Source: a virus (taxonomy: Duplodnaviria > Heunggongvirae > Uroviricota > Caudoviricetes). Taken from it: DNA of 25,567 bases. The stretch is taken from the IMG/VR virus record IMGVR_UViG_2925914267_000006, positions 1 through 25,567 of that record; one strand, 5' to 3'. The position numbers and the translations under genes are program-made. Of the stretch, positions 758 to 21,899 are shown one piece after another (position 1 is the stretch's first letter; each line of letters begins with the position of its first letter). The notes beneath the pieces were generated by a model, which was not told the origin of the DNA, ran no database searches, and saw nothing but the letters and a program-made list of their open reading frames with translations.

Positions 758-952
758 ATGTCAACGAAGAACAGAACCCGCAGAACAACAACCCGCAACA
801 TCCGCTTTCCTAACCAAATGATTGAACAAATTAACATCGCTCTTGAGCAAAAAGGGTCCGGGAATTTCTCAGCCTGGGTCATTGAAGCCTGCCGTCGGAG
901 ACTAACGTCAGAAAAGAGAGCATATACATCAATTAAAAGTGATGAAGAATGA
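758..952 (+). CDS. ylcI: Small 64-aa protein, likely the DLP12 YlcI homolog, with a ribbon-helix-helix-like N-terminus
   Basis: The ORF sits immediately right of IS1; its size and position match DLP12 ylcI. The segment IRFPNQMIEQINIALEQKG...FSAWVIEACRRRL looks like an RHH DNA-binding fold. The symbol is assigned from recall with moderate certainty. Confidence 0.55.
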   Translation: MSTKNRTRRTTTRNIRFPNQMIEQINIALEQKGSGNFSAWVIEACRRRLTSEKRAYTSIKSDEE

Positions 953-1116
953 ACATCCCGCGTTCTTCCCTCCGAACAGGACGATATTGTAAATTCACTT
1001 AATTACGAGGGCATTGCAGTAATTGAGTTGCAGTTTTACCACTTTCCTGACAGTGACAGACTGCGTGTTGGCTCTGTCACAGGCTAAATAGTTTGAATGA
1101 TTAGCAGTTATGGTGA

Positions 1117-1323
1117 TCAGTCAACCACCAGGGAATAATCCTTCATATTATTATCGTGCTTCACCAACGCTGCCTCAATTGCTCTGAATGCTTCCAGAGA
1201 CACCTTATGTTCTATACATGCAATTACAACATCAGGGTAACTCATAGAAATGGTGCTATTAAGCATATTTTTTACACGAATCAGATCCACGGAGGGATCA
1301 TCAGCAGATTGTTCTTTATTCAT
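1117..1323 (-). CDS. ybcW: 68-aa hypothetical protein, likely YbcW homolog
   Basis: A 68-aa ORF divergent from ybcV; the size and neighbourhood match DLP12 ybcW. Confidence 0.5.
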
Positions 1324-1608
1324 TTTGTCGCTCCATGCGCTTGCTCTTCATCTAGCGGTTAAAATATTACTTCAAATCTTTCTGTATGAAGATTTGAGCA
1401 CGTTGGCCTTACATACATCTGTCGGTTGTATTTCCCTCCAGAATGCCAGCAGGACCGCACTTTGTTACGCAACCAATACTATTAAGTGAAAACATTCCTA
1501 ATATTTGACATAAATCATCAACAAAACACAAAGAGGTCAGACCAGATTGAAACGATAAAAACGATAATGCAAACTACGCGCCCTCGTATCACATGGAAGG
1601 TTTTACCA

Positions 1609-2019
1609 ATGGCTCAGGTTGCCATTTTTAAAGAAATATTCGATCAAGTGCGAAAAGATTTAAACTGTGAATTGTTTTATTCTGAACTAAAACGTCACAA
1701 CGTCTCACATTATATTTACTATCTAGCCACAGATAATATTCACATCGTGTTAGAAAACGATAACACTGTGTTAATAAAAGGACTTAAAAAGGTTGTAAAT
1801 GTTAAATTCTCAAGAAACACGCATCTTATAGAAACGTCCTATGATAGGTTGAAATCAAGAGAAATCACATTTCAGCAATACAGGGAAAATCTTGCTAAAG
1901 CAGGAGTTTTCCGATGGGTTACAAATATCCATGAACATAAAAGATATTACTATACCTTTGATAATTCATTACTATTTACTGAGAGCATTCAGAACACTAC
2001 ACAAATCTTTCCACGCTAA
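1609..2019 (+). CDS. ybcV: DUF1398-family protein YbcV (136 aa)
   Basis: The 177-aa ORF contains an internal start ([13 protein letters not shown]...) that yields exactly 136 aa, as in DLP12 YbcV; it lies next to bor. Confidence 0.65.
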
Positions 2020-2309
2020 ATCATAACGTCCGGTTTCTTCCGTGTCAGCACCGGGGCGTTGGCATAATGCAATACGTGTACGCGCTAAACCCTGTGTGCA
2101 TCGTTTTTAATTATTCCCGGACACTCCCGCAGAGAAGTTCCCCGTCAGGGCTGTGGACATAGTTAATCCGGGAATACAATGACGATTCATCGCACCTGAC
2201 ATACATTAATAAATATTAACAATATGAAATTTCAACTCATTGTTTAGGGTTTGTTTAATTTTCTACACATACGATTCTGCGAACTTCAAAAAGCATCGGG
2301 AATAACACC

Positions 2310-2603
2310 ATGAAAAAAATGCTACTCGCTACTGCGCTGGCCCTGCTTATTACAGGATGTGCTCAACAGACGTTTACTGTTCAAAACAAACCGGCAGCAG
2401 TAGCACCAAAGGAAACCATCACCCATCATTTCTTCGTTTCTGGAATTGGGCAGAAGAAAACTGTCGATGCAGCCAAAATTTGTGGCGGCGCAGAAAATGT
2501 TGTTAAAACAGAAACCCAGCAAACATTCGTAAATGGATTGCTCGGTTTTATTACTTTAGGCATTTATACTCCGCTGGAAGCGCGTGTGTATTGCTCACAA
2601 TAA
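2310..2603 (+). CDS. borD: Bor lipoprotein (serum-resistance lipoprotein of lambdoid phages)
   Basis: 97-aa protein with a lipoprotein signal peptide and lipobox (LLITGC); the sequence matches Bor as recalled, and it is convergent with Rz as in lambda. Confidence 0.9.
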   Translation: MKKMLLATALALLITGCAQQTFTVQNKPAAVAPKETITHHFFVSGIGQKKTVDAAKICGGAENVVKTETQQTFVNGLLGFITLGIYTPLEARVYCSQ

Positions 2604-2609
2604 TTGCAT

Positions 2610-2635
2610 GAGTTGCCCATCGATATGGGCAACTC
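2610..2635. terminator. Shared hairpin between the convergent bor and Rz genes (bidirectional terminator candidate)
   Basis: Perfect 10-bp inverted repeat gagttgccca / tgggcaactc with a 6-nt loop, lying between the bor stop and the Rz stop. Confidence 0.5.
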
Positions 2636-3111
2636 TATCTGCACTGCTCATTAATATACTTCTGGGTTCCTTCCAGTTGTTTTTGCATAGTGATCAGCCT
2701 CTCTCTGAGGGTGAAATAATCCCGTTCAGCGGTGTCTGCCAGTCGGGGGGAGGCTGCATTATCCACGCCGGAGGCGGTGGTGGCTTCACGCACTGACTGA
2801 CAGACTGCTTTGATGTGCAACCGACGACGACCAGCGGCAACATCATCACGCAGAGCATCATTTTCAGCTTTAGCATCAGCTAACTCCTTCGTGTATTTTG
2901 CATCGAGCGCAGCAACATCACGCTGACGCATCTGCATGTCAGTAATTGCCGCGTTCGCCAGCTTCAGTTCTCTGGCATTTTTGTCGCGCTGGGCTTTGTA
3001 GGTAATCGCGTTATCGCGGTAATGATTAACCGCCCATGAAAGGCAGACGATGACGCAGATAACCAGAGCATAAATAATCGCGGCGACTCTGCTCACTGAT
3101 CTATCCCCCAA
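2635..3111 (-). CDS. rzpD: Rz i-spanin (start uncertain, possibly GTG near 3096)
   Basis: Has an N-terminal transmembrane segment and a coiled-coil periplasmic domain, and matches RzpD as recalled. It overlaps the endolysin stop and contains Rz1 in another frame. Confidence 0.85.
2694..2876 (-). CDS. rzoD: Rz1 o-spanin lipoprotein embedded in Rz
   Basis: 60-aa ORF lying wholly inside Rz in another frame, with a lipobox (VVVGC) and a proline-rich stretch ([13 protein letters not shown]). Confidence 0.85.
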
Positions 3112-3626
3112 CAGGCTAATGCGCTTTCCTGGTCACGACGAATAACCTGTCCATAGCAGTTATTTGAACGTATGCGGCAATCGCGCCCACCATCTTTTAT
3201 CCACCAGCGAATCGCCTCGCATGCACCTTTACGATCACCGGCATTCAGCCGCTTATAAAACGTCGACGGGAAACACTTACCGGGGCCAATGTTATAGGGA
3301 CAAAATGACGCGATACCCGCTTTCTGTGGTTCGGTCAGTGGCACTTTAATATTGCGCTCCACCCATGCCAGCGCCTTATCCCGTTCAATGGCGTTAACCT
3401 GGTCGCATTTTTCCTTCGACAGTTTCATACCGGGAAAAACGGGTTTTCCATCCACCACCGTGGCACCCCGACAGATGGTCCAGATGCCGGAACCATCGCG
3501 GTATGCCGTTGTGTGGTTACCTTCTTTTTCATCCAGAAACTGGTCGAGAATATCAGGCGCAGGCGCACCGACGGCAATCAGTGCCAGAACGGCAGCCGAC
3601 AGGCCGTATCTGATTTTTGCGTTCAT
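3093..3626 (-). CDS. rrrD: SAR-endolysin (T4-type lysozyme fold with an N-terminal signal-anchor)
   Basis: The N-terminal hydrophobic SAR segment ([15 protein letters not shown]) is followed by an E-x8-D-x5-T catalytic pattern ([16 protein letters not shown]). It lies between the holin and Rz. Confidence 0.88.
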
Positions 3627-3969
3627 GGATATTTATCAGGATTTATCGGTTTCTGAACCCTGGATATGTTTATCTGTCCCGGCCTGTTGAATCAGGCAAG
3701 GAATAGTTAAATACAATAGAGAGGATTGTTTATGGACAATAGCACCATTTCTCTACAGGAGTTGCTCGACTGCATTTCCAAGCTTCGGGATGATGTAAAT
3801 GCCCTTACTGTCGCATTTTAATATCTGGCATTCTCAATTCCCAAGGAACAAATGCAACCAACACTGGCATCGCTCCAGCTTGAATCACTCAACCCCAAAT
3901 GGTCCCAGCAACAACAAAATTCTTTCAAGTGGCTGGCGGTATTACTGGAAGAAAAATATGCTGGTGAAA

Positions 3970-4314
3970 TTACCATTTCGGCGGAGTCTTCAGAGAACCA
4001 GTAATTCTTCCCGGTAGCTTTCCTTTGTAGGTTATCCACACATTCTGCGCCTCTAAAATTATGGGGCGCTTTTCCGGCGACAGCTCATCCCCTTCACATA
4101 ACCCGGCAGCAACATCCAGGAAGACCTGTCTGATGCTCCTTCTGGCTGCTGCCTCATAAAACTCCAGCGCGGCACCTTCAACACGGTCCAGCGAGATGTC
4201 CAGGTCAAAAATTTCACCGTCAAAGCGTTTTTTGTCCCGTAACGCTAAAGTTACCGTAACTTTATTCTCAAAATTGCGGATCCCTTTCACAATCAGTTCA
4301 TAGTTTTGAGTCAT
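3970..4314 (-). CDS. Hypothetical 114-aa protein inserted between pinholin and endolysin, possibly DUF1327/YdfR-like
   Basis: The start lies 4 nt after the holin stop, with a GGGGAGAG ribosome-binding site. A comparable holin - ydfR - lysozyme order exists in the Qin prophage by recall; the family assignment is unverified. Confidence 0.5.
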   Translation of the reverse strand: MTQNYELIVKGIRNFENKVTVTLALRDKKRFDGEIFDLDISLDRVEGAALEFYEAAARRSIRQVFLDVAAGLCEGDELSPEKRPIILEAQNVWITYKGKLPGRITGSLKTPPKW

Positions 4315-4318
4315 TGAA

Positions 4319-4534
4319 TTACTCTCCCCGTGCAGCCTTACGCTTGTCTTCTTTAATCTTGAAATAAAGGTTTGTCAGGTACGTCAGCAGGCCAAATACC
4401 AGGCTACCCAGCACACCTATTGCTGCCCACTGTGAGGGCGTGACTTTATCGAGCAGCTGTAAAAACCAGTAACCGGCACTACCTGCTGAGGTGCCATAGG
4501 CGACACCCGTTGTTAACTTATCCATGGATTTCAT
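4319..4534 (-). CDS. essD: Class II pinholin (phage 21 S21-like) with a dual-start motif
   Basis: 71-aa protein [26 protein letters not shown]... with two transmembrane segments and a charged C-terminus; it matches S21/EssD as recalled. Confidence 0.9.
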
Positions 4535-4644
4535 AACCCCACCTCGCAGACAAAGCGGGTGTAAATTGAGGGAATACTACGAAACGTAACAGACTCGGAG
4601 TCAGTGAATAACTCAGGTATTGGGTTATCAGCTAATATCGAGAC

Positions 4645-4680
4645 TCAAAAAATGGAAAAACCCGCTCGACGGCGGGTTTA
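4645..4680 (-). terminator. Rho-independent terminator on the minus strand upstream of the holin (tR'-like)
   Basis: On the minus strand the stem aaacccgc / gcgggttt (6-nt loop) is followed by ttccatttttt, about 110 nt upstream of the essD start. This is the expected position of the late-operon terminator. Confidence 0.5.
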
Positions 4681-5107
4681 AGCTGTGTGACGAAGTAACC
4701 ACTCTTAACAGCATAACCAATTTTTTACGTACGTAAACCACAAAATGATATTTGCGAGAATGCTACCGAGTATTGAAAACACCACTACAAATACATAAGC
4801 AAATCTCAACAAATAACCAACAAATAATTTCCAGTGTTATTTTTAGCCGATTTAAATTGAACCTTCAAATTACAGAGCACTTATAAATAACAGCCGTTAA
4901 TATAAATTGGCTAATAGATTTATTTTTATTCAGCCAAGAGCCATGAATAGGATTCGATAGAAAAAAGTTCAGATAAAAATAGAGATCTACTTCACAAATC
5001 AAACGAGAAACCAAAACTTACATCTTGAAATAATCACATTGATTAGATGAATATTTATCGCGCAGTGACATCATTTTTTAATAATAGTTCAAAAAAAAGG
5101 GCTCACG

Positions 5108-6190
5108 ATGAAAAAATTAACAGTGGCAATTTCTGCTGTAGCTGCATCAGTACTGATGGCGATGTCTGCTCAGGCAGCTGAAATTTATAATAAAGACAGT
5201 AACAAGCTGGATCTGTACGGGAAAGTTAATGCTAAGCACTACTTCTCCTCTAATGATGCAGATGATGGTGATACTACTTATGCCCGTCTTGGCTTCAAAG
5301 GTGAAACCCAAATCAACGATCAACTGACTGGTTTCGGTCAGTGGGAATATGAATTCAAAGGCAACCGCGCTGAATCTCAAGGTTCCTCCAAAGATAAAAC
5401 CCGTCTTGCCTTCGCTGGCCTGAAATTCGGTGACTACGGCTCCATCGATTATGGCCGTAACTACGGTGTAGCATACGATATTGGTGCATGGACCGACGTT
5501 CTGCCAGAATTCGGTGGCGATACCTGGACCCAAACAGATGTATTCATGACTGGTCGCACCACAGGTGTTGCAACTTATCGTAACAACGACTTCTTTGGTC
5601 TGGTTGATGGCCTGAACTTTGCAGCTCAGTATCAGGGCAAAAATGACCGAAATGAAGTAACTGAAGCTAATGGCGATGGTTTCGGTTTCTCAACTACTTA
5701 TGAGTATGAAGGATTCGGCGTGGGTGCAACCTATGCTAAATCTGATCGCACTAATAATCAGGTTATCTACGGTAACAACGGTCTGAATGCTTCTGGTCAA
5801 AATGCTGAAGTATGGGCAGCTGGTCTGAAATATGATGCGAACAACATCTATCTGGCCACCACCTATTCTGAAACCCAGAACATGACTGTTTTTGGTAATA
5901 ACCATATTGCCAACAAAGCACAAAACTTCGAAGCTGTTGCACAATATCAGTTCGACTTCGGCCTGCGTCCATCCGTTGCTTACCTGCATTCTAAAGGAAA
6001 AGACTTGGGTGTTTGGGGTGATCAGGACCTGGTTGAATATGTTGATGTAGGTGCAACCTATTACTTCAACAAAAATATGTCCACTTTTGTTGACTACAAA
6101 ATCAACCTGATTGATAAGAGCGATTTCACGAAAGCATCTGGCGTTGCTACCGATGATATCGTTGCTGTAGGTATGGTTTACCAGTTCTAA
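5108..6190 (+). CDS. nmpC: Intact general porin of the OmpC/NmpC/OmpD family (prophage-borne Lc-type porin)
   Basis: 360-aa protein with a signal peptide (ending AQA) and the porin C-terminal ...VGMVYQF; it matches NmpC as recalled and is full length here. Its upstream region looks AT-rich by eye. Confidence 0.9.
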
Positions 6191-6327
6191 TTTGATTACT
6201 AAAAGATATGTTGTGGGAGGCTTTGCCTCCCCAACATATAAGTGGCTCCCTCAAGCCACTTCCTTTAGAAGCACAACCTTGCTTCTAACTATACAAACCT
6301 TCTGTTATATATTACCCTTTATTTTTG

Positions 6328-6352
6328 GGGGCGCTTCAACGCCCCATTTTTA
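6328..6352 (+). terminator. Rho-independent terminator downstream of the porin gene
   Basis: GC stem ggggcg / cgcccc with loop cttcaa, followed by atttttaat; it is the last of four tandem hairpins. Confidence 0.6.
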
Positions 6353-6386
6353 ATAACTTTTAGTAAATAATTGGCGTATTAATTAG

Positions 6387-7581
<1,195 letters not shown>

Positions 7582-7604
7582 TTAGTTGATTGTTATCTCT
7601 GACT

Positions 7605-7745
7605 TCATACTCCTGCTCCTGTCAGGGTTTTGGCGTAACTCTTCAGTATTCGGTAATCGGTCAAAACAGAACCGGGGAAACGATATAAGCGCAGGCGCAC
7701 CCAGCGGCGGCGAAGACGTTCTGCCATATAAGACTCAAACATCAT
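7605..7745 (-). CDS. ylcG: YlcG small protein (46 aa)
   Basis: Translated by hand from the minus strand as [46 protein letters not shown]. It follows the rusA stop directly and is absent from the ORF track because it is under 60 aa. Confidence 0.7.
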
Positions 7746-8104
7746 TCATCTCCCAGTTCAGTGATGGTCAGTTCCAGCTTCCCACCTTTGGTAACAGGCA
7801 TCTTCACAACGCGGTAATCAACGACCAGCTCATCATCCAGCCAGAAACCTGCTTTAGTGAGTGCGTCAAAAGCGGCTTTTTGCAGATTATCCAGGTCACG
7901 GCGACGGCGATCCGGCATGTGGCACTCAATGCGGATTTTCACAGGCATAGCCAGACCGATATCCAGCATTGAGCCTTTAATGATTCGGGCGACGTTATCG
8001 CGGTATGCCTGCCCTTCTGCGCTGATGTGCGTGCGCCCTCGATTATGGCGGTAGTAGCGGTTATTGCTCGGCGGCCAGGGTAGTGTGATGTGGTAAGTAT
8101 TCAC
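7742..8104 (-). CDS. rusA: RusA Holliday-junction resolvase
   Basis: 120-aa protein [26 protein letters not shown]... matching RusA as recalled. Confidence 0.93.
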
Positions 8105-9013: not shown

Positions 9014-9832
9014 TTAAGCAGCCATCTGATGATATTTTTCCCTGAAGGCTGCCGGGGAGATATTCCCCAGACGAGAGTGACGACGCTGACGATTGTAGAA
9101 AATCTCAATGTATTCCCGTATTACTGAGATGGCTTCATCCCGGTTATTAAAACGATAGTGGCTCAGGCTCTCATTTTTCAGCGTTCCCCAGAAGCTTTCC
9201 ATCGGAGCGTTGTCGTAACAGTTACCTTTACGCGACATTGATGTTTTCAGACCAAACTGCTCCTGTATGACCCGGTAATCGTATGCGCAGTACTGTGAAC
9301 CTCGATCAGAGTGGTGGATTAGCCCGGCAGGTGGGCGCTGGCTCCTGAGCGCCATAAACAGGGCTTTACCTGTCAGCTCTTTTGTCATGCGCTCTCCCAT
9401 GGCGTAGCCGACAATTTCGCACGTATAAACATCTTTGATGCCAGCGAGGTACAACCATCCCTCCTGTGTGGCAACATACGTCAGGTCCGCCACCCAGACC
9501 TGATTTGGTGCTGTAGGAGCGAACGTCTGGTTCAGCAGATTTGGCGCAACTGGCAGATTGTGGTTCGAGTTCGTAGTCGCTCTGAACTTGCGTTTCTGCT
9601 TACAGCGTAGCCTTAGCTCCTTACGAAGACGTGCCAGTCGGTCACGACCAACGATGATGCCATTCTCTGCCAGCTCCGTCTGGAGCCGCCGGGTTCCATA
9701 TGTTTCGCGAGTGCGGATATGTGCCACCTTAATCTCCAGTTTTAGCCGCTCATCACTTTGTTTTCTGTCTGAGGGTTCATGCTGTACCCAGTTGTAATAA
9801 CCGCTCCTGGATACACCAAATACCTGACACAT
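9014..9832 (-). CDS. IS3-family transposase OrfB (DDE integrase core)
   Basis: 272-aa ORF with typical IS3-family OrfB motifs (WVADLTYV, HHSDRGSQY, YDNAPMESFWGTLK). Confidence 0.88.
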   Translation of the reverse strand: MCQVFGVSRSGYYNWVQHEPSDRKQSDERLKLEIKVAHIRTRETYGTRRLQTELAENGIIVGRDRLARLRKELRLRCKQKRKFRATTNSNHNLPVAPNLLNQTFAPTAPNQVWVADLTYVATQEGWLYLAGIKDVYTCEIVGYAMGERMTKELTGKALFMALRSQRPPAGLIHHSDRGSQYCAYDYRVIQEQFGLKTSMSRKGNCYDNAPMESFWGTLKNESLSHYRFNNRDEAISVIREYIEIFYNRQRRHSRLGNISPAAFREKYHQMAA

Positions 9833-9867
9833 CGCTTCAATGGGAAATTGTTGTCGCCATTGTTCGA

Positions 9868-10170
9868 TTAACGCGTATTTTTCAGCGACTCCTGTGCAAA
9901 ATACGCTGTTGCTTTTTTTAATATATCTCGCTCAAGGCGAGCTTCATTTAACGCCTTACGCAGTTGCAGAATTTCAGATTCCAGTTCAGCCACCGTGCGG
10001 GAACCAGGAGTACCGAGCCCTTTTCTGGCGGCGGTAACCCATTGCCCTAAAGTGCCTTCAGGAAGAGATAATCGGGAAGCGCCTTCACTGATCGAAAGTT
10101 GATTTTCAAGAACCGTTCTGACAGCTTCGGCTTTGAACTCTTTAGAGTAACGTTGGGTTTTTCTGCTCAT
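9868..10170 (-). CDS. IS3-family transposase OrfA (HTH plus leucine zipper)
   Basis: 100-aa ORF with an HTH and the C-terminal LERDILKKATAYFAQE zipper typical of IS3-family OrfA; an A AAA AAG slippery site lies near its 3' end. Confidence 0.85.
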   Translation of the reverse strand: MSRKTQRYSKEFKAEAVRTVLENQLSISEGASRLSLPEGTLGQWVTAARKGLGTPGSRTVAELESEILQLRKALNEARLERDILKKATAYFAQESLKNTR

Positions 10171-10309
10171 TATTAGCTCCTTCTGATGCCATTCTATTTC
10201 AGGAAGGAGTGTCCGTTAAACTCAGGCTACCTCAGTTACCGCGATGCAGTTTGATGCCATCTTGTGGGAAGTTCACGCTTCACCTCCGCAGAGATCAAAC
10301 GCTGGATGC

Positions 10310-10420
10310 AAAAAAACGCAGGTGCATTTCTGCATCTGTGGCAAGGCGAGGAGTTCAACTTGTGGTCGCATATAATTTCCCAATCATATGCGCAGAAGTC
10401 ACCGCAGGGTGTTCAGGCCA
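10310..10420 (-). repeat. Copy A of a roughly 110-bp repeat with two conserved boxes; contains a minus-strand rho-independent terminator
   Basis: Box 1 (aggtgcatttctgcatctgtg) and box 2 (gcgcagaagtcaccg..gttcaggc) are about 50 nt apart. On the minus strand box 1 forms a stem with a GAAA loop followed by a run of seven T, just upstream of the ninB-like start. Confidence 0.55.
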
Positions 10421-10446: not shown

Positions 10447-10698
10447 TTATGATTTTTCAATTTCATCAATAACCTTGTGATAGACAATACCAGAAAGGCC
10501 AACAGACAGTGGATGTTCATGAAATATTGGCTCATTTGCATAAACCCAATGCCCGACAAATTCTTCTGGGCTTGATATGTATAACTCACGAAGAAAATGG
10601 AGATCCCTCTCTACAACTAATTTCGTATCGTCCAAGAGCGCTGCATTTACGCTAGTTTTATGGCTGTGCATTAATTTACATTTGGTGAAGGACATCAT
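10447..10698 (-). CDS. Hypothetical 83-aa protein
   Basis: ORF downstream of the Bro-N-like gene on the same strand; no family recognised. Confidence 0.4.
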   Translation of the reverse strand: MMSFTKCKLMHSHKTSVNAALLDDTKLVVERDLHFLRELYISSPEEFVGHWVYANEPIFHEHPLSVGLSGIVYHKVIDEIEKS

Positions 10699-10757: not shown

Positions 10758-11375
10758 CTAACGTTGTTTAATAACATTCTGACGCAAATGTGGCAATTGT
10801 ACTCGACTCCACTTATCATCCTGCCACGGCTGGAATTTTACATGTGCCGTTTCTCTGGCGAGGATTGCTCGCGCTCTGGTGAGTATCTGGGGATATTCTT
10901 GCTCGATGGAAGTGAAGCGACCAGCTTCACGATGCTCCGCAACCTGAAGAAGAGGAGTAACGTTCTGGCAGGCGGTTAACATCGCATCCCCAGCTCGCCA
11001 TAACCAAGCAAGTGTGCAAAGTTCGTTATCAGTGAATTGTTTTGTGATCGGGGATTGTTGAACTTCTCGATCGAGAATATCCAGAACCCAGCGGCGGAAC
11101 TCTTTGGCTACAGGAGTTCGTGCAAACATGGCGATCAAATGAGCTCCGCGAAGGCTAAATACTCGAGACTCCTGCATTCCACGAGGGGTGGTCACTTTGA
11201 CCACCCTTGTCATCATATCTGTAAATTCATCTGAGTGACGAGAGTAAATGCGCTGAACTGCTTTATCGTCCGCATATTCCAGAGCTAAACCAACTTCAGT
11301 GGCAGTAAGCCAAATTCTGTTATTGTGGCAAATTGGGGTAAACGTCGTTTTGTGGAATGCTAATTGAGTAGTCAT
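10758..11375 (-). CDS. Bro-N / antirepressor-like DNA-binding protein
   Basis: The N-terminal pattern (FHKTTFTPICHNNRIWLTATEVGLALEYADDKAVQRIY...RVFSLRGAHLIAMFARTPVAKEFRRWVLDIL) resembles Bro-N domains of phage antirepressors. Family assignment is from recall only. Confidence 0.55.
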   Translation of the reverse strand: MTTQLAFHKTTFTPICHNNRIWLTATEVGLALEYADDKAVQRIYSRHSDEFTDMMTRVVKVTTPRGMQESRVFSLRGAHLIAMFARTPVAKEFRRWVLDILDREVQQSPITKQFTDNELCTLAWLWRAGDAMLTACQNVTPLLQVAEHREAGRFTSIEQEYPQILTRARAILARETAHVKFQPWQDDKWSRVQLPHLRQNVIKQR

Positions 11376-11530: not shown

Positions 11531-11552
11531 TAAAAAAACCGCTTAACGCGGT
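11531..11552 (-). terminator. Weak minus-strand terminator candidate upstream of the Bro-N-like gene
   Basis: On the minus strand ccgc-gttaa-gcgg is followed by a run of seven T; the stem is short. Confidence 0.3.
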
Positions 11553-11638
11553 ATGCGTTGAGTAGTATTCCGGGACGCCAATCCCGTGTGCCGATTTTGC
11601 GGCAACGCACAGAATATATCCCCAGATAAATCATGTCG

Positions 11639-11728
11639 TCAACCCCAGTAAATGGACACCATGATGATCACAGCCATAGCTGCTACAACAGTTACAACTA
11701 CCTCAGGCCAAAACATAACGATTTCCAT
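11639..11728 (-). CDS. Possible 29-aa hydrophobic peptide (MEIVMFWPEVVVTVVAAMAVIIMVSIYWG)
   Basis: Single predicted transmembrane helix with an AGGTGA-like ribosome-binding site close to the ATG. It is the 3' end of an 82-aa GTG-initiated ORF and may not be coding. Confidence 0.3.
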   Translation of the reverse strand: MEIVMFWPEVVVTVVAAMAVIIMVSIYWG

Positions 11729-11794
11729 ATCACCTTTAGCCGCCAGACGAATAGAGACTCCCAATTCTGGCTGTCGAAGTAAAACACCGAATGT

Positions 11795-11902
11795 AAAAAA
11801 TCGTAGGTGCATTTCTGCATCTGTGAATGGAGAAGATAGGTTGGATTGTATGTGCGCATAAACGTCCCCGTTTAGCGCAGAAGTCACCGGAGTTGTTCAG
11901 GC
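11795..11902 (-). repeat. Copy B of the same two-box repeat with a minus-strand terminator
   Basis: Box 1 and box 2 are conserved with copy A at the same ~50-nt spacing while the intervening sequence differs. The minus-strand stem is followed by a run of six T. Confidence 0.55.
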
Positions 11903-11986
11903 TCCGGCTTATTAATATTGCCTACTTACAATTAATTTTTCAACTGTTAGAAACTTATAATTAGCTGTCTCTTTGTAACTATCAAT

Positions 11987-12217
11987 TTAATTATTTTTCT
12001 TTAACTTGAAATTTCTTCCCATTGCTAGTGTTCTTCGAAGATTCGAATCATAAGCTGGTTGATAATATCTATCATAAAAATCCTTAATTGTCTGATGGTA
12101 AGTATCCAGCATCAAACCATAAAACCCCATGACCTTAAGATAATCCACCAAGGGAAATAAATAATCATCAGTCTGAACATCAGTATCAACATTATTTTTT
12201 TTGTTTTTTAACTTCAA
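11987..12217 (-). CDS. 76-aa ORF overlapping the 3' end of the STAND NTPase gene; possibly its frameshifted C-terminal extension
   Basis: TTG-initiated ORF in another frame relative to the NTPase; the two frames cross within an 8-nt A tract (T8 on the plus strand at about 12191-12198). AT-rich by eye. Confidence 0.35.
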   Translation of the reverse strand: MKLKNKKNNVDTDVQTDDYLFPLVDYLKVMGFYGLMLDTYHQTIKDFYDRYYQPAYDSNLRRTLAMGRNFKLKKNN

Positions 12218-13919
12218 ATTTGTATAAGTTTAACTCACCCTTATCCATCGTGCATGAAAAAAGGTCGTCAAAAATCAAATCAATTTTTGTCATAGGAACT
12301 CGTTCTTTTCCAGACATTATAGGTAGAATATCAATACCTAAGAGCGAACCTAATACAAAGTCGTAATGAAGCGAAATCACTGAGTCATTCGATGTCGAGT
12401 TGCCTTTGATAAATACTCTACTTAGTGCCGAGTCAAAAACATTCTCAACTCTCTCTCTCGTCATGTTTGCGACATCTACAACCCCCATATCACGAGAAGC
12501 TTTTATTGTGATTTCATCTATAAATGCTTTGGAATCTAGTGAATGTAAAAACAACATGAAGTTATCTAACTGTTCAGAGCATTTAATAGCCACCATAAGA
12601 TTTTCGTATATATCTTTTTTATACTCAATCGGTAAATTTGCTACCGCAAAAGCAGCATAAAATTCTTGCACTGATTTATGCAGAAAAACATACCTATTAT
12701 TTCCCTCAGGTTGGATAAGGCAAGTTATCTCAATAAGATCATCTATAAAGTTTGATGCATCTTCTTTAAGATAACCTTCTGTTTCAATAGCATCTTCAGC
12801 ATATCTAAGCAACTCCTCTCCCCAAAACTCAAATTTCTCCTCAATCAGTGCGTTATAGCAAATAGCTGAAAAACACAATTTAGCTTTTTCACCAATAATG
12901 TTTGATTTTTTCTCGCGCGTATATACTTTTATTTTATCATGCCTTGCATATAAGGTGTCAAAGAGGCTTCGATAAAACTCTATTATATTATTTGGAATAT
13001 CATTCATATAAGGATAACAATAATACAAAAGAGTAACTAAAATTGGATTGCAAATAGTTCCCTCAAGTTCTTCTTTATCACATAGTAAATCCGCCAAGAC
13101 TTTAAACGAGGCATCACTACTTGAGAATCTGTCATTTTTCGATAAAGAATGAAGAATACAAATCTTATCAGAAATATTTAGCTTATCTATAAAAATATTA
13201 TACACATCAGTAGTATAACATATATCTGTATTTGGTCTCGTTGTTGCGATAATTGGTGTGTTAAAATGATAATGAATGTTTTTTATTTCATTCATCATCA
13301 TAGTTCGCTCTTCATGTTTAACCTCATCAAATCCATCCAACATTAAAACGACTCTTTGGGATTGCAGTAATATTTTCAAGCTATCCTCTGAACACCCCAC
13401 ACCAAATGAATTAAGAATGTCTGCCAGATAAGCAATAATATTTGCATTCTTCACCCTTCTTAATTCAATAAAAAAAGGTATCCGTTCTGATTTTTTTATT
13501 TCCTCGCTAAACAACTTGCGTAAAATAGTACTTTTCCCTTGCCCCGCTATACCGACTATATTTACAATACCATGAAATGGTAAAGTGACCCCATCTTTTA
13601 TAACGACCTTGTCTTTATTAGATGCCACCTCAACAGTTAACGGATAATAAATATCATCTAAAAAAATATCATAATCAGCGTTGTGCAAAGTTCTCATTTT
13701 CAGAGATGGTAGCACATGCTTTCTTAAATAATTTTCTCTCCCGAGGGGATCATTTAATTGTTCGAGTATAACCTTGCCTTCATCTAGGTCCCTAGCCCAA
13801 GGTTTAGAGAGCAATACTTCTGTTATTTTTTCCGCAGCTTTTCCTACTGTGCTATTAATAATAGTCGCAAGAAACTCATCCATTTTTTCACCACATTCAT
13901 TAACCAATACGTGGTGCAT
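12192..13919 (-). CDS. STAND-class P-loop NTPase (NACHT-like), candidate antiphage or abortive-infection protein
   Basis: Walker A (GIAGQGKST), Walker B of NACHT type (VVLMLDGFDEV) and a TTRP motif (IIATTRP) at NACHT-like spacing. Both the gene and its flanks look AT-rich by eye. The start is uncertain: ATG at 13919 or 13883, with the track's TTG at 13940. Confidence 0.7.
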   Translation of the reverse strand: MHHVLVNECGEKMDEFLATIINSTVGKAAEKITEVLLSKPWARDLDEGKVILEQLNDPLGRENYLRKHVLPSLKMRTLHNADYDIFLDDIYYPLTVEVASNKDKVVIKDGVTLPFHGIVNIVGIAGQGKSTILRKLFSEEIKKSERIPFFIELRRVKNANIIAYLADILNSFGVGCSEDSLKILLQSQRVVLMLDGFDEVKHEERTMMMNEIKNIHYHFNTPIIATTRPNTDICYTTDVYNIFIDKLNISDKICILHSLSKNDRFSSSDASFKVLADLLCDKEELEGTICNPILVTLLYYCYPYMNDIPNNIIEFYRSLFDTLYARHDKIKVYTREKKSNIIGEKAKLCFSAICYNALIEEKFEFWGEELLRYAEDAIETEGYLKEDASNFIDDLIEITCLIQPEGNNRYVFLHKSVQEFYAAFAVANLPIEYKKDIYENLMVAIKCSEQLDNFMLFLHSLDSKAFIDEITIKASRDMGVVDVANMTRERVENVFDSALSRVFIKGNSTSNDSVISLHYDFVLGSLLGIDILPIMSGKERVPMTKIDLIFDDLFSCTMDKGELNLYKFEVKKQKK

Positions 13920-14271
13920 TCTTACAAGACTCAGTAACAATTGTCAATCATAGGTTTTCGCATGATTGCAAAACGCCATAAACAATTGTAGCACCATAAT
14001 TTTAAACACTATATAATATACAACCTTCCTACAAGCATTCAGTACATCGCTTAATCACAGGGCTTGAATATATAGTAAGGAATCGATATTAATCACCTCA
14101 TCTACTTTAAACATCTTACACACCTATAATTTATAATAGTCAACACGAGGTCATCATATTAAACATGCAATTACAAACATTCATTTTTATATAAATTTTC
14201 ATGATTTAACCGTAGAGCGACGGTAATAAATTTCATATACAAGGATTTAAGCTCCCATACGTTTTCTATTA

Positions 14272-14451
14272 TTAAAAATAACATACCGTTCGCCAGACCT
14301 TACCATCAATGACCAGGATTCCTGCCCGCGCCATTTTTGCCGCAGCCTGATTTATGCTGGTTAATGTCACACCTGTTGTCGCAGCAACGTCCGGCGCACA
14401 GAAGCTCTTGTGCGTCCCCAGGTAATGAATAATTGCTTCTTTTCCCGTCAT
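14272..14451 (-). pseudogene. ren: Truncated ren (59 codons, lambda Ren is 96 aa)
   Basis: Hand translation gives MTGKEAIIHYLGTHKSFCAPDVAATTGVTLTSINQAAAKMARAGILVIDGKVWRTVCYF*, matching the N-terminal part of lambda Ren. The ATG overlaps the P stop, and the frame ends where the AT-rich island begins. Confidence 0.75.
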
Positions 14452-17861: not shown

Positions 17862-18725
17862 ATGGATTGTGACGCTTTACAGGATATAAAAATCTCTCTT
17901 AGGTATGACGGAAAAGATGCTTTAAATCATGAAATAGATTTGAACTGCCTAGGAGAATCCCTAAAGGGTTTTTCTAAAGTTCTCTCAACAGCAGCTTCTT
18001 TCTCTGTTACACAAAAATATAGTAAATACATTAATTATCAGGAAGTTAAGGTTTACGCACGCGAAGCAAAAGCTAACTGCTTTACTCTTGAAGCAGTTCT
18101 TAACTTCGCCACTCAGAACCAGTTGTTCTCGGGGATCGCCGCAACTATACTTGGCGCAATACTACAATATATTTTTGCGAGAAATTCTAACAAGAAAGAT
18201 GAAATGAAAGCTTTGCAGCAGTCACTTGAAAAGGCCATAGAGGCACTAGGAAACAAGGATGCTGGAACCATTGATAAGTTGATCTCTTTGATTGACCGAA
18301 TGGCTGTAGAGCTTCGCCCCTCTGTAAGGCAGGCAGTATCACCTATTGGTAATACTTGCGATCAGATAAGTGTTGCAACAAATGTTGACGGCTGCCTTCT
18401 AAAAGTTAACGAGAGAGATAAAGCTGAAATTGATAGGCTTGATGATGATGAAGTTCTCGGTCTTCGTGAGTATCGTGCTTTTCTTACAGAATTTGATGCA
18501 CAAAATATGACAGCTAAAATAATTTTAGATGGTGATGACTCAAAAAAGAGAATCACTGCTGAAATTAGCGATCCAGCTGCAGGAAAGAAGAATAACCCGT
18601 ATATTAGAGCTCTTAGTGCATATATATCAACCAAAGGTGATCCATCTGCAGTATTCACTATAACCGCAAAGGCTACTGTTAAAAAAGGCCAGATAAACAG
18701 GTTATTTATTGTAGATGCGAAATGA
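17862..18725 (+). CDS. Unrecognised 287-aa protein downstream of the repressor on the same strand (rex position), candidate exclusion gene
   Basis: Follows cI after 66 bp and is closed by a strong terminator. It has one central hydrophobic segment ([18 protein letters not shown]), no resemblance to lambda RexA/RexB, and looks AT-rich by eye. Confidence 0.6.
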
Positions 18726-20685: not shown

Positions 20686-21012
20686 ATGACTAAAAATACT
20701 CGTTTTTCCCCCGAAGTCCGTCAGCGGGCGATTCGTATGGTTCTGGAAAGTCAGGATGAATATGACTCACAGTGGGCGGCAATTTGTTCCATTGCCCCAA
20801 AGATTGGCTGTACGCCGGAGACTCTGCGTGTCTGGGTTCGCCAGCATGAGCGGGATACCGGGGGCGGTGATGGTGGGCTCACCAGTGCTGAACGTCAGCG
20901 TCTGAAAGAGCTGGAACGTGAAAATCGTGAACTGCGCCGCAGTAACGATATCCTTCGCCAGGCTTCCGCTTATTTTGCGAAGGCGGAGTTCGACCGCCTC
21001 TGGAAAAAATGA
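20686..21012 (+). CDS. IS629 OrfA
   Basis: 108-aa protein [42 protein letters not shown]... matching IS629-group OrfA as recalled. Confidence 0.88.
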
Positions 21013-21899
21013 TGCCACTGCTGGATAAGCTGCGTGAGCAGTACGGGGTCGGACCGGTATGCAGCGAACTGCATATTGCCCCGTCAACGTATTACCATTG
21101 TCAGCAACAGCGACATCATCCGGATAAACGCAGTGCCCGTGCGCAGCACGACGACTGGCTGAAGAGAGAGATACAGCGCGTATACGATGAAAATCATCAG
21201 GTGTACGGTGTGCGTAAAGTCTGGCGTCAGTTGTTACGGGAAGGAATCAGGGTAGCCAGATGTACAGTGGCGCGCCTCATGGCGGTTATGGGACTTGCCG
21301 GTGTTCTCCGGGGTAAAAAGGTCCGCACTACCGTCAGCCGGAAAGCCGTTGCCGCAGGCGACCGCGTAAACCGTCAGTTTGTGGCAGAACGACCTGACCA
21401 GCTGTGGGTGGCTGATTTTACTTACGTCAGCACATGGCAGGGCTTCGTCTATGTGGCGTTTATCATTGATGTGTTTGCCGGATACATCGTGGGGTGGCGG
21501 GTCTCATCGTCTATGGAAACGACATTCGTGCTGGATGCGCTGGAGCAGGCGTTGTGGGCCCGTCGTCCGTCTGGCACCATCCATCACAGCGATAAAGGCT
21601 CTCAGTATGTGTCACTGGCCTATACGGAGCGACTAAAAGAAGCCGGATTACTGGCATCAACAGGGAGTACAGGCGACTCGTATGACAACGCGATGGCTGA
21701 GAGCATCAATGGTCTTTACAAAGCGGAGGTAATACACCGTAAGAGCTGGAAAAACCGTGCAGAAGTGGAACTGGCCACACTAACGTGGGTGGACTGGTAT
21801 AACAATCGACGATTGCTGGGAAGGCTGGGCCATACTCCTCCGGCAGAAGCAGAAAAAGCTTATTATGCTTCCATCGGAAACGATGATCTGGCAGCCTGA
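21009..21899 (+). CDS. IS629 OrfB (DDE transposase core)
   Basis: 296-aa protein with IS3-family OrfB motifs ([31 protein letters not shown]). Confidence 0.88.

Follow-up and report, generated by a model that had tools for sequence, protein, structure and literature searches.

The AT-rich segment that lies between ren and the nin genes of the prophage studied here raises the question of whether it encodes an unplaced two-gene defence system or a known one in an unfamiliar state. The window, meaning the whole stretch of 25,567 nucleotides that was analysed (positions 1 to 25,567 of IMG/VR record IMGVR_UViG_2925914267_000006), had been described in an earlier note as carrying a minus-strand STAND/NACHT-type NTPase gene with a small overlapping partner ORF, in an architecture that could not be assigned to a named system. 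We found that the gene belongs to the clade-14 bNACHT family and that its reading frame is broken by a single-base insertion. The complete reading, in which it is a single-gene cargo of the ren-to-nin slot, disrupted by an A7-to-A8 slip and most likely non-functional in this copy, is one that we regard as probable.

The cargo island and its NACHT gene

The host prophage is a lambda-like, DLP12-like, defective element of E. coli with four IS insertions, and the bNACHT gene is co-oriented with its cro-like, YdaT, O, P, and ren genes, as had been proposed for a passenger of the pR operon. The GC content between 11917 and 14278 is 0.323, against 0.463 in the left flank and 0.502 in the right flank, bearing out the earlier impression of an AT-rich island. 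Similarity to prophages whose cargo differs (L010, L011) stops at 11906–11916 and restarts at 14279–14280, and ren, which is full-length in phage PhiR30_1, ends here exactly where the prophage homology ends, so that the truncated ren adjoining the gene was also read correctly. Other prophages with the same backbone hold unrelated cargo at this position, in agreement with the suggestion of a cargo slot, and bNACHT relatives at 61–66% identity occupy the same prophage slot in other bacteria or other lambdoid prophages. A tblastn search of isolated phage genomes returned no close homologue, only matches at 24–25% in Clostridium and Vibrio phages.

The island carries candidate signals of its own at both ends (Table 1). 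A sigma-70-like site upstream of the start codon would, to judge from its sequence, serve as the promoter of the gene; 21 sites of this kind were found in the AT-rich DNA, where 12.4 ± 4.3 were expected. In an alignment of the upstream region across diverged relatives, only the Shine-Dalgarno and start context aligned. The hairpin at the left edge of the island is a possible terminator or module boundary.

Table 1 Features of the cargo island and its borders, in window coordinates
Feature	Position	Strand	Basis or remarks
AT-rich cargo island of ~2.36 kb; early-right operon of the prophage, ren-to-nin slot	11917..14278	.	GC content and homology breakpoints
ren, shortened to 59 codons by the right boundary of the island	14272..14451	-	ORF and homology break at 14279/14280
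Best candidate sigma-70-like promoter, TTGACA - 18 nt - TGtAAGAAT, ~35 nt 5′ of the ATG	13918..13947	-	10/12 match, extended -10 TG
Truncated bNACHT CDS, 563 codons and premature TAA	12192..13883	-	PGAP CDS WP_164543894.1; Pfam NACHT 43.8 bits
Walker A / P-loop GIAGQGKST, K117	13527..13553	-	Invariant in 56 homologues; corresponds to bNACHT11 K115
NACHT-type Walker B VVLMLDGFDEV (D183-G184-F185-D186-E187)	13320..13352	-	D183, G184, D186, and E187 invariant (56 homologues)
TTRP motif with R216	13233..13244	-	R216 and P217 invariant (56 homologues); R216 corresponds to bNACHT11 R214
A8 homopolymer with +1 insertion	12195..12202	-	A7 in 8/8 other E. coli copies
Out-of-frame remnant, residues 563–631 of the intact protein	11987..12196	-	Mechanical ORF 11987–12217, 76 codons
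GC-rich hairpin at the left edge of the island, 80 nt 3′ of the intact stop codon	11887..11907	-	Weak T-tract on the strand of the gene; possible terminator or module boundary

All three NTPase motifs named in the earlier note are present, and the Walker B follows the NACHT pattern DGxDE, an Asp and a tiny residue ahead of acidic residues. R216 lies 99 residues after K117, the identical spacing to that of R214, which contacts ATP, after K115 in bNACHT11, and His402 of the WHD, in FLHKSVQEF, is invariant among the 56 homologues. Two of the checks that had been proposed, an HMM search and a fold search, supported the view that the protein is a NACHT/STAND NTPase from a family with antiphage function. 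Pfam NACHT (PF05729) scored 43.8–43.9 bits against a cutoff of 26.7 and matched all 56 of the aligned homologues, while the AF2 model (pLDDT 89, pTM 0.87) gave a predicted fold that matched NLRC4, NOD2, NLRP3, and NAIP (Foldseek E ~1e-12 over ~470 columns). A profile match to NLRC4 was also obtained (E=3e-10); searches of PDB chains by sequence and by profile returned only NLRC4, NLRP, and NAIP from a set with no bNACHT11 entry. A housekeeping ATPase was considered and rejected, as the best non-NACHT matches were generic AAA or ABC P-loop models below their own cutoffs.

The closest characterised relative is bNACHT11 of Klebsiella pneumoniae (WP_114260439.1), a clade-14 NACHT+SNaCT protein (Robbins, Kibby et al., bioRxiv 10.1101/2024.12.17.629029). 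The match is collinear from residue 1, with 39% identity over 452 residues (E=7e-107) and, in a second comparison, 41% over 403 residues; bNACHT01, bNACHT02, and bNACHT12 are 35–38% identical (E=2e-89 to 7e-86), and all four are experimentally validated defenders. The published clade-14 architecture consists of a short N-terminal extension, NACHT, and SNaCT in a single gene, and the layout that had seemed unplaceable is this one, at 35–41% identity to four validated proteins. Neighbouring genes differ between loci, consistent with single-gene status. The PADLOC search suggested earlier gave nothing but P-loop-level noise (E ≥ 0.015), and P-loop noise was also all that PADLOC-DB v2.0 and NCBIfam returned when the 76-codon ORF and neighbouring genes were scanned along with the NACHT ORF. 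This null is uninformative for the query, because bNACHT11 itself has no PADLOC hit. The members of this family are single-protein, NLR-like abortive-infection sensors and, by analogy with them, the query subfamily would act against phages through Walker-A-dependent abortive infection.

One reading frame split by a homopolymer insertion

The ORF at 12192–13940 exists as reported, and its length of 582 codons is that of a mechanical reading from a TTG to the stop codon; translation from the ATG at 13883 gives 563 codons. We place the start at this ATG and not at TTG 13940, because the ATG has the conserved Shine-Dalgarno/start context GGTGA...ATGGAYGA and the family N-terminus, while the TTG falls within the spacer of the strongest promoter-like match. 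The stretch after the P-loop, put earlier at about 340 residues, comes to ~444 in that ORF. The truncated CDS comprises the N-terminal extension (residues 1 to ~61), the NACHT module (~62–435), and the first two-thirds of SNaCT.

An alignment of nine alleles placed one extra A at gene position 1683, in the A-run listed in Table 1. The intact gene has 631 codons and is uninterrupted in seven of the eight other complete E. coli genomes. The small ORF at 11987–12217, previously taken for an overlapping partner, is the out-of-frame C-terminus of the same gene, produced by the A7-to-A8 insertion. A two-gene system of a NACHT NTPase with a small partner protein would account for the overlap of a 76-codon ORF with the 3′-terminal part of the NACHT ORF seen in the window; we rejected it, and give it practically no credence, since the two frames form one continuous CDS in 7/8 of the other alleles, the small ORF aligns with the C-terminal SNaCT helices of full-length homologues, and the family is described as single-gene.

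The frameshift could instead be an assembly or consensus error at the homopolymer, in which case strain 720632 would really have an intact 631-codon gene. One extra base in an A-run is the commonest type of long-read consensus error, and the exact product with I135 and A8 is on record from this genome alone: no called gene on record matched the 563-residue product exactly, and a cluster look-up returned this genome only. The same 563-residue truncation has, however, been deposited independently on the M135 allele, on two contigs (WP_074638485.1, OKV61166.1, HAN6358612.1), and eight contigs carry another homopolymer frameshift, from T7 to T8. These two observations indicate that real slippage mutations occur in this gene, and we consider a sequencing artefact unlikely.

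Intact alleles are found on ~960 contigs, against three with the 563-residue truncation; an example of an intact allele is deposited as WP_024239936.1. A-runs are known slippage sites, and two of the four 7-nt homopolymers in the gene have gained a base independently. It might thus be argued that the A-run is a reversible switch, at which phase variation, or transcriptional or ribosomal slippage on A8, restores some full-length protein and keeps a costly suicide gene off or low. A8 is nevertheless shorter than the runs of at least 9 known for efficient transcriptional slippage, the KKQK tract is unconserved outside the closest alleles, and the presence of A8 on only 3 of ~960 contigs indicates that it is not a balanced polymorphism. 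We judge such a switch to be very improbable, and the window copy is most likely a recent pseudogene.

Predicted consequences of the truncation

In the intact allele, the C-terminus was modelled as a 196-residue alpha/beta domain at pLDDT 92; clade-14 SNaCT domains are short, free of repeats, and span ~160–195 residues. The stop at residue 563 of 631 cuts this domain after ~126 of its 196 residues, and the last 68 residues are missing from the window copy. On the AF2 model, the lost segment consists of one strand (E571–577), two helices (H578–584 and H588–624), and the C-terminal tail; the premature end interrupts a strand of the sheet, and the terminal helix lost with it, 37 residues long, packs on the domain in the predicted structure. 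The probable identity of the domain as SNaCT was approached through homologues. SNaCT1 (PF22710) is passed by 23 of the 56 full-length homologues, and a profile built from those SNaCT1-positive C-termini matched the query C-terminus at 30.5 bits (E ~1e-11 in a single-target search), of which 25.6 bits are carried by the out-of-frame remnant. The remnant also has a weak match to Pfam SNaCT1 (E=0.043). The query itself falls below Pfam SNaCT1, as does the positive control bNACHT11, and no Pfam model matched the C-terminal 250 residues of the intact protein or the first 120 residues at E ≤ 1.

A tail of the bNACHT11 type is absent from the window allele and present in seven other E. coli genomes. 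In bNACHT11, deletion of the last seven residues (633–639) leaves no oligomerisation, no puncta formation, and no defence (bioRxiv 10.1101/2024.12.17.629029). Because this loss abolishes oligomerisation and defence in bNACHT11, the window copy, which lacks far more, is most likely dead. The importance of the lost segment rests on this analogy and on the predicted structure, since SNaCT has diverged too far from that of bNACHT11 for residue-level mapping. The 563-residue protein does keep its N-terminal extension and its NACHT module complete, along with roughly two-thirds of SNaCT, and these parts show no further lesion; I135M is the one additional coding change relative to the intact allele. 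Some activity might be imagined on this basis: a shift in specificity, dominant-negative interference with other bNACHT proteins, or constitutive signalling at a low level. The cut within the predicted sheet strand, the loss of the terminal helix, the bNACHT11 deletion, and the rarity of the truncated form in the population all argue against residual activity, which we hold to be improbable.

The N-terminal extension is unaffected by the frameshift. In clade 14 this short segment is the effector and opens with a motif resembling MDPIT or MEPIS. The query N-terminus MDEFLATIINSTVGKAAEKI aligns to MDPITNEILKIGIGETAKLI of bNACHT11, with D2 kept and P3 replaced by Glu, while most homologues begin with MDPLL, MEPLT, or MDPIT. 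Substitution of the conserved Pro (P3A) abolishes defence by bNACHT11 (bioRxiv 10.1101/2024.12.17.629029), yet bNACHT01 (MDII) and bNACHT12 (MDLV) have no Pro3 and defend against T4, T5, T6, or MS2 (Kibby et al.).

For the intact 631-residue protein, a mechanism can be proposed from the 39%-identical, collinear bNACHT11. The lysogen would probably make the protein from its own promoter, and the C-terminal SNaCT domain would bind at least one protein of the incoming phage. Contacts between NACHT modules, dependent on ATP, would then combine with insertion of each C-terminal tail into the adjacent SNaCT to build a wheel-like oligomer that gathers the short N-terminal “MD...” extensions, and this may disrupt the inner membrane and osmotic balance and kill the cell before the phage finishes its cycle. 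In the window copy, the stop at residue 563 would most likely prevent both proper sensing and oligomerisation. A further proposal, which we offer as doubtful, is that the intact form is a lambdoid-prophage-adapted branch of clade 14 with its own SNaCT sensor and an MDE(F/V) start, which is kept at the ren-to-nin position in prophages of Escherichia, Salmonella, and Enterobacter. Such a protein might be tuned to detect rival phages, some of them perhaps temperate, through their proteins and to disregard the prophage that carries it, and the slippage-prone A and T runs might provide a quick and possibly reversible off-switch for a costly suicide sensor.

Intact alleles and known systems

The locus that looked like a two-gene STAND system with no named counterpart is one frameshifted member of a single-gene family, for which a mechanism was recently established. 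Since the widely used PADLOC v2.0 and Pfam SNaCT1 models miss this family, including its best-studied member, such genes are readily mistaken for novel ones. Six RefSeq accessions of the query protein returned no papers in the literature searched and are absent from the Kibby supplementary tables. The useful lead is the set of intact alleles and not the window copy: they are prophage-borne and common, being found on ~960 contigs, and they share ~40% identity with bNACHT11 but have another sensor domain. They offer a natural test of how the range of phages detected shifts as SNaCT diversifies, and could show whether a suicide sensor that resides in a prophage escapes triggering by its own phage.

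Mammalian NLRC4, NAIP, NOD2, and NLRP3 share with the query the NACHT fold NBD-HD1-WHD-HD2, whereas the query has no LRR sensor, CARD, or PYD, and identity is 13–16%. The Avs/AVAST proteins follow a similar STAND logic of pattern recognition, in which the NTPase lies between an effector at the N-terminus and, at the C-terminus, a sensor for phage proteins, but they form a different STAND clade, and the match to Avs4 is weak (E=2e-5, TM 0.22). Membership in this group was rejected, as sensor repeats of the TPR or any other kind are lacking in the query, and so are nuclease, Sir2, and protease effectors.

bNACHT11 resembles the query in its near-equal length (639 residues against 631 for the query), its collinearity from Met1, its MD start, its NLRC4-like NACHT fold, its single-gene organisation, and its C-terminal alpha/beta domain of ~190 residues without repeats. 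The two differ in that their SNaCT domains are not significantly similar in pairwise comparison, that residue 3 of the query is Glu and not Pro, and that bNACHT11 is carried on a 4.2-kb ColE1 plasmid and the query in a lambdoid prophage. bNACHT01, bNACHT02, and bNACHT12 have the same single-gene architecture, with their identity to the query extending over ~400 residues, but lie in other genomic contexts (bNACHT01 near a CBASS system) and have other SNaCT sequences.

The island itself can be compared with the “morons” of lambdoid prophages, such as lambda rexAB and bor. While these encode other protein families and are expressed in the lysogen, where expression of the query is predicted, the resemblance extends to an AT-rich insert in a conserved phage operon, equipped with a promoter-like site of its own and followed by a hairpin, in a slot where unrelated cargo alternates from one prophage to another.

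A single NACHT gene interrupted by a frameshift

The island was compared across nine complete E. coli genomes, that of the window's strain and eight others. Seven of these eight carry a single 1,896-bp CDS of 631 codons with the same end point as the 76-codon ORF (11987-12217) that an earlier note had taken for a small overlapping partner of the NACHT gene. Base-by-base alignment revealed a run of eight A residues at 12195-12202 in the window versus seven in all eight other copies; the added A puts translation out of frame from codon 561-562, with a TAA after residue 563, indicating that the 76-codon ORF is the out-of-frame tail (residues 563-631) of the same gene. When a profile was derived solely from C-termini of distant homologues positive for the Pfam model of the C-terminal sensor domain, SNaCT1, it matched the intact C-terminus at 30.5 bits, 25.6 of them within the 76-codon ORF. 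A separate partner gene was rejected on the continuity of this ORF with the NACHT frame in the seven genomes and on the location of these profile bits.

A consensus error behind the eight A residues in the assembly of the window's strain, 720632, is improbable in our estimate. The gene holds four 7-nt homopolymers, two of which have been hit in separate lineages: strain 2014C-4135 has an independent T7-to-T8 frameshift at gene position 408, splitting the gene into ORFs of 139 and 488 codons. Contig counts are 8 for the 488-residue product and 3 for the 563-residue truncation, two in the M135 allelic background and one, the window's genome, in I135, compared to roughly 960 contigs with intact alleles, indicating that this type of frameshift is real, recurrent and rare.

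The gene starts at ATG 13883, which is preceded by a GGTGA Shine-Dalgarno sequence that is kept in relatives at 61-66% identity and yields an N-terminus (MDEFL...) aligned from residue 1 with the MD(P)... of the family. TTG 13940, rejected as the start, falls between the -35 and -10 elements of the highest-scoring promoter-like site, a plausible promoter of the gene as judged from sequence. In the representative of the 90%-identity cluster, from a Logan assembly, translation begins 12 residues further upstream, at an alternative ATG (window 13919) inside the -10 region of that site, and Walker A reads GQWKST rather than GQGKST. This start, which gives 643 residues, is used in many deposits (309 contigs). 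The earlier note was largely correct in its observation and misread the gene structure.

Features of the window discussed in the text
Feature	Position	Strand	Detail
IS1A	1-698
IS5/ISKpn26	6534-7513
IS600	9014-10170		in ybcN
Direct repeat	10234-10418 and 11782-11916		~130-190 bp, 75-85% identity
83-codon ORF	10447-10698		enclosed by the repeat
Bro-N/P22AR_C gene	10758-11375		enclosed by the repeat
Intrinsic-terminator-like hairpin + T-run	11538-11552	-	good; ACCGCGTTAAGCGGT TTTTTTA; between NACHT island and Bro-N gene
Promoter-like site	11613-11642	-	10/12; TTGACG, 18 nt, TATATT; between NACHT island and Bro-N gene
GC-rich hairpin	11887-11907		3' of NACHT gene; consensus-level evidence in AT-rich DNA
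TTRP	13233-13244		motif in NACHT gene
VVLMLDGFDEV	13320-13352		motif in NACHT gene
GIAGQGKST	13527-13553		motif in NACHT gene
Promoter candidate	13947-13918	-	TTGACA, 18 nt, TGtAAGAAT; consensus-level match in AT-rich DNA
287-residue gene	17862-18725	+	immediately 3' of cI-like S24 repressor
IS1203	20686-21899		in exo
Early-right operon		-	cro-like gene, YdaT-family gene, O, P, ren

Host prophage and cargo slot

The window is identical to sequence of E. coli strain 720632 (NZ_CP025842.1) and covers an entire defective prophage of the DLP12 type, which stretches from intD to an IS1 and is devoid of virion genes. Four IS elements are present, and in the flanks retrieved from the other carriers examined, no IS600 was found in ybcN. 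As claimed previously, ren is truncated, ending after 59 codons, and the island is AT-rich, with a GC content of 0.32 from the end of ren to about 11917 versus 0.46-0.50 in both flanks. In same-backbone prophages with other cargo, either a TagO-like lipoprotein or an acyltransferase and a lipoprotein, homology is lost at 11906-11916 and regained at 14279-14280, which defines an island of ~2.36 kb in a cargo-exchange slot.

Strains ANT and DAM do not have the module of Bro-N/P22AR_C gene and 83-codon ORF that the direct repeat encloses, and their NACHT island is joined directly to ybcN, suggesting that modules are exchanged via recombination between junction repeat sequences. The hairpin and promoter-like site between the island and the Bro-N gene may be a terminator and a promoter of the nin-region type. 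The 287-residue gene is AT-rich (GC 0.37-0.41) and, in the position of rexAB in lambda, matches Pfam DUF7946 (E=4e-55) and DUF7947 (E=1e-18) and, weakly, the PADLOC candidate model PDC-S42 (E=1.5e-4). Possibly it is another cargo gene that the lysogen expresses.

The gene has relatives at 61-66% identity in one genome of Enterobacter cloacae and on two metagenome contigs. All lie in this slot, between the replication genes and rusA/ylcG/Q, and share the orientation of the operon. A series of defence-like genes precedes the NACHT gene in the prophage of Enterobacter cloacae (841-7905); they encode an FRG-domain protein, a Ser/Thr/Tyr-kinase-like protein and, on the opposite strand, a 746-residue KAP NTPase. 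No close homologue was found in isolated phage genomes of the collection searched.

Membership in the bNACHT family

The NACHT motifs claimed earlier were recovered, and the Pfam NACHT model scored 43.8 bits against a cutoff of 26.7. Homologues retrieved from the database numbered 216, almost all of 620-650 residues, and many at about 44% identity and below carry precomputed NACHT and SNaCT1 (PF22710) annotation; in our scan, SNaCT1 was passed by 23 of 56 aligned full-length homologues. Among these 56, the NACHT-specific D-G-x-D-E of Walker B does not vary, nor does the winged-helix His (FLHKSVQEF).

Comparison sequences came from Table S2 of Kibby et al., with bNACHT11 reconstructed from plasmid pRYC492-4. 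The earlier note could not place the architecture, which proved collinear with bNACHT11 from Met1 (39% identity over residues 1-452, E=7e-107; 41% over the first 403), with K117/R216 corresponding to K115/R214 at identical spacing. Identity to bNACHT01, 02 and 12, all phage-protective in E. coli (Kibby et al.), is 35-38%. The defence reading was right in kind. The protein has no PADLOC v2.0 match and does not reach Pfam SNaCT1, which is not counted against membership because bNACHT11, the best-characterised protein of clade 14 and our positive control, misses both. Both libraries therefore under-detect this clade-14 family, which can make its members appear novel. By sequence, the gene is a new prophage-borne member of the known, mechanistically characterised bNACHT family.

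The bNACHT11 gene lies on a 4.2-kb ColE1-type plasmid of K. pneumoniae (NZ_CP127841.1) and is missing from its gene table because it spans the record origin; rotating the record gave the complete 639-residue sequence.

Predicted mechanism and comparison with bNACHT11

The SNaCT of bNACHT11 binds several unrelated phage proteins via beta-augmentation and a hydrophobic patch, and target binding with ATP leads to assembly of a heptameric wheel through NACHT-NACHT contacts and a C-terminal tail (633-639) docked in the SNaCT of the next protomer; once clustered, the roughly 45-residue N-terminal extension (MDPIT) kills the cell in a plasmolysis-type death (bioRxiv 10.1101/2024.12.17.629029). Without residues 633-639, oligomerisation, puncta formation and defence are all lost (bioRxiv 10.1101/2024.12.17.629029). 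In the predicted structure, the window product stops within strand E557-561 of the putative SNaCT sheet; absent from it are strand E571-577, the helices 578-584 and 588-624, the latter 37 residues long, and the tail. Given that a 7-residue tail deletion suffices to kill bNACHT11, the window allele is most likely non-functional, consistent with a prophage already full of IS elements, and the copy is probably a pseudogene of modest interest, leaving the intact alleles elsewhere as the worthwhile experimental target. As prophage cargo, the intact 631-residue protein would be expressed in the lysogen and, by homology, would follow the same scheme as bNACHT11, presumably with a different set of triggers, since its putative SNaCT shows no recognisable sequence similarity to the bNACHT11 domain.
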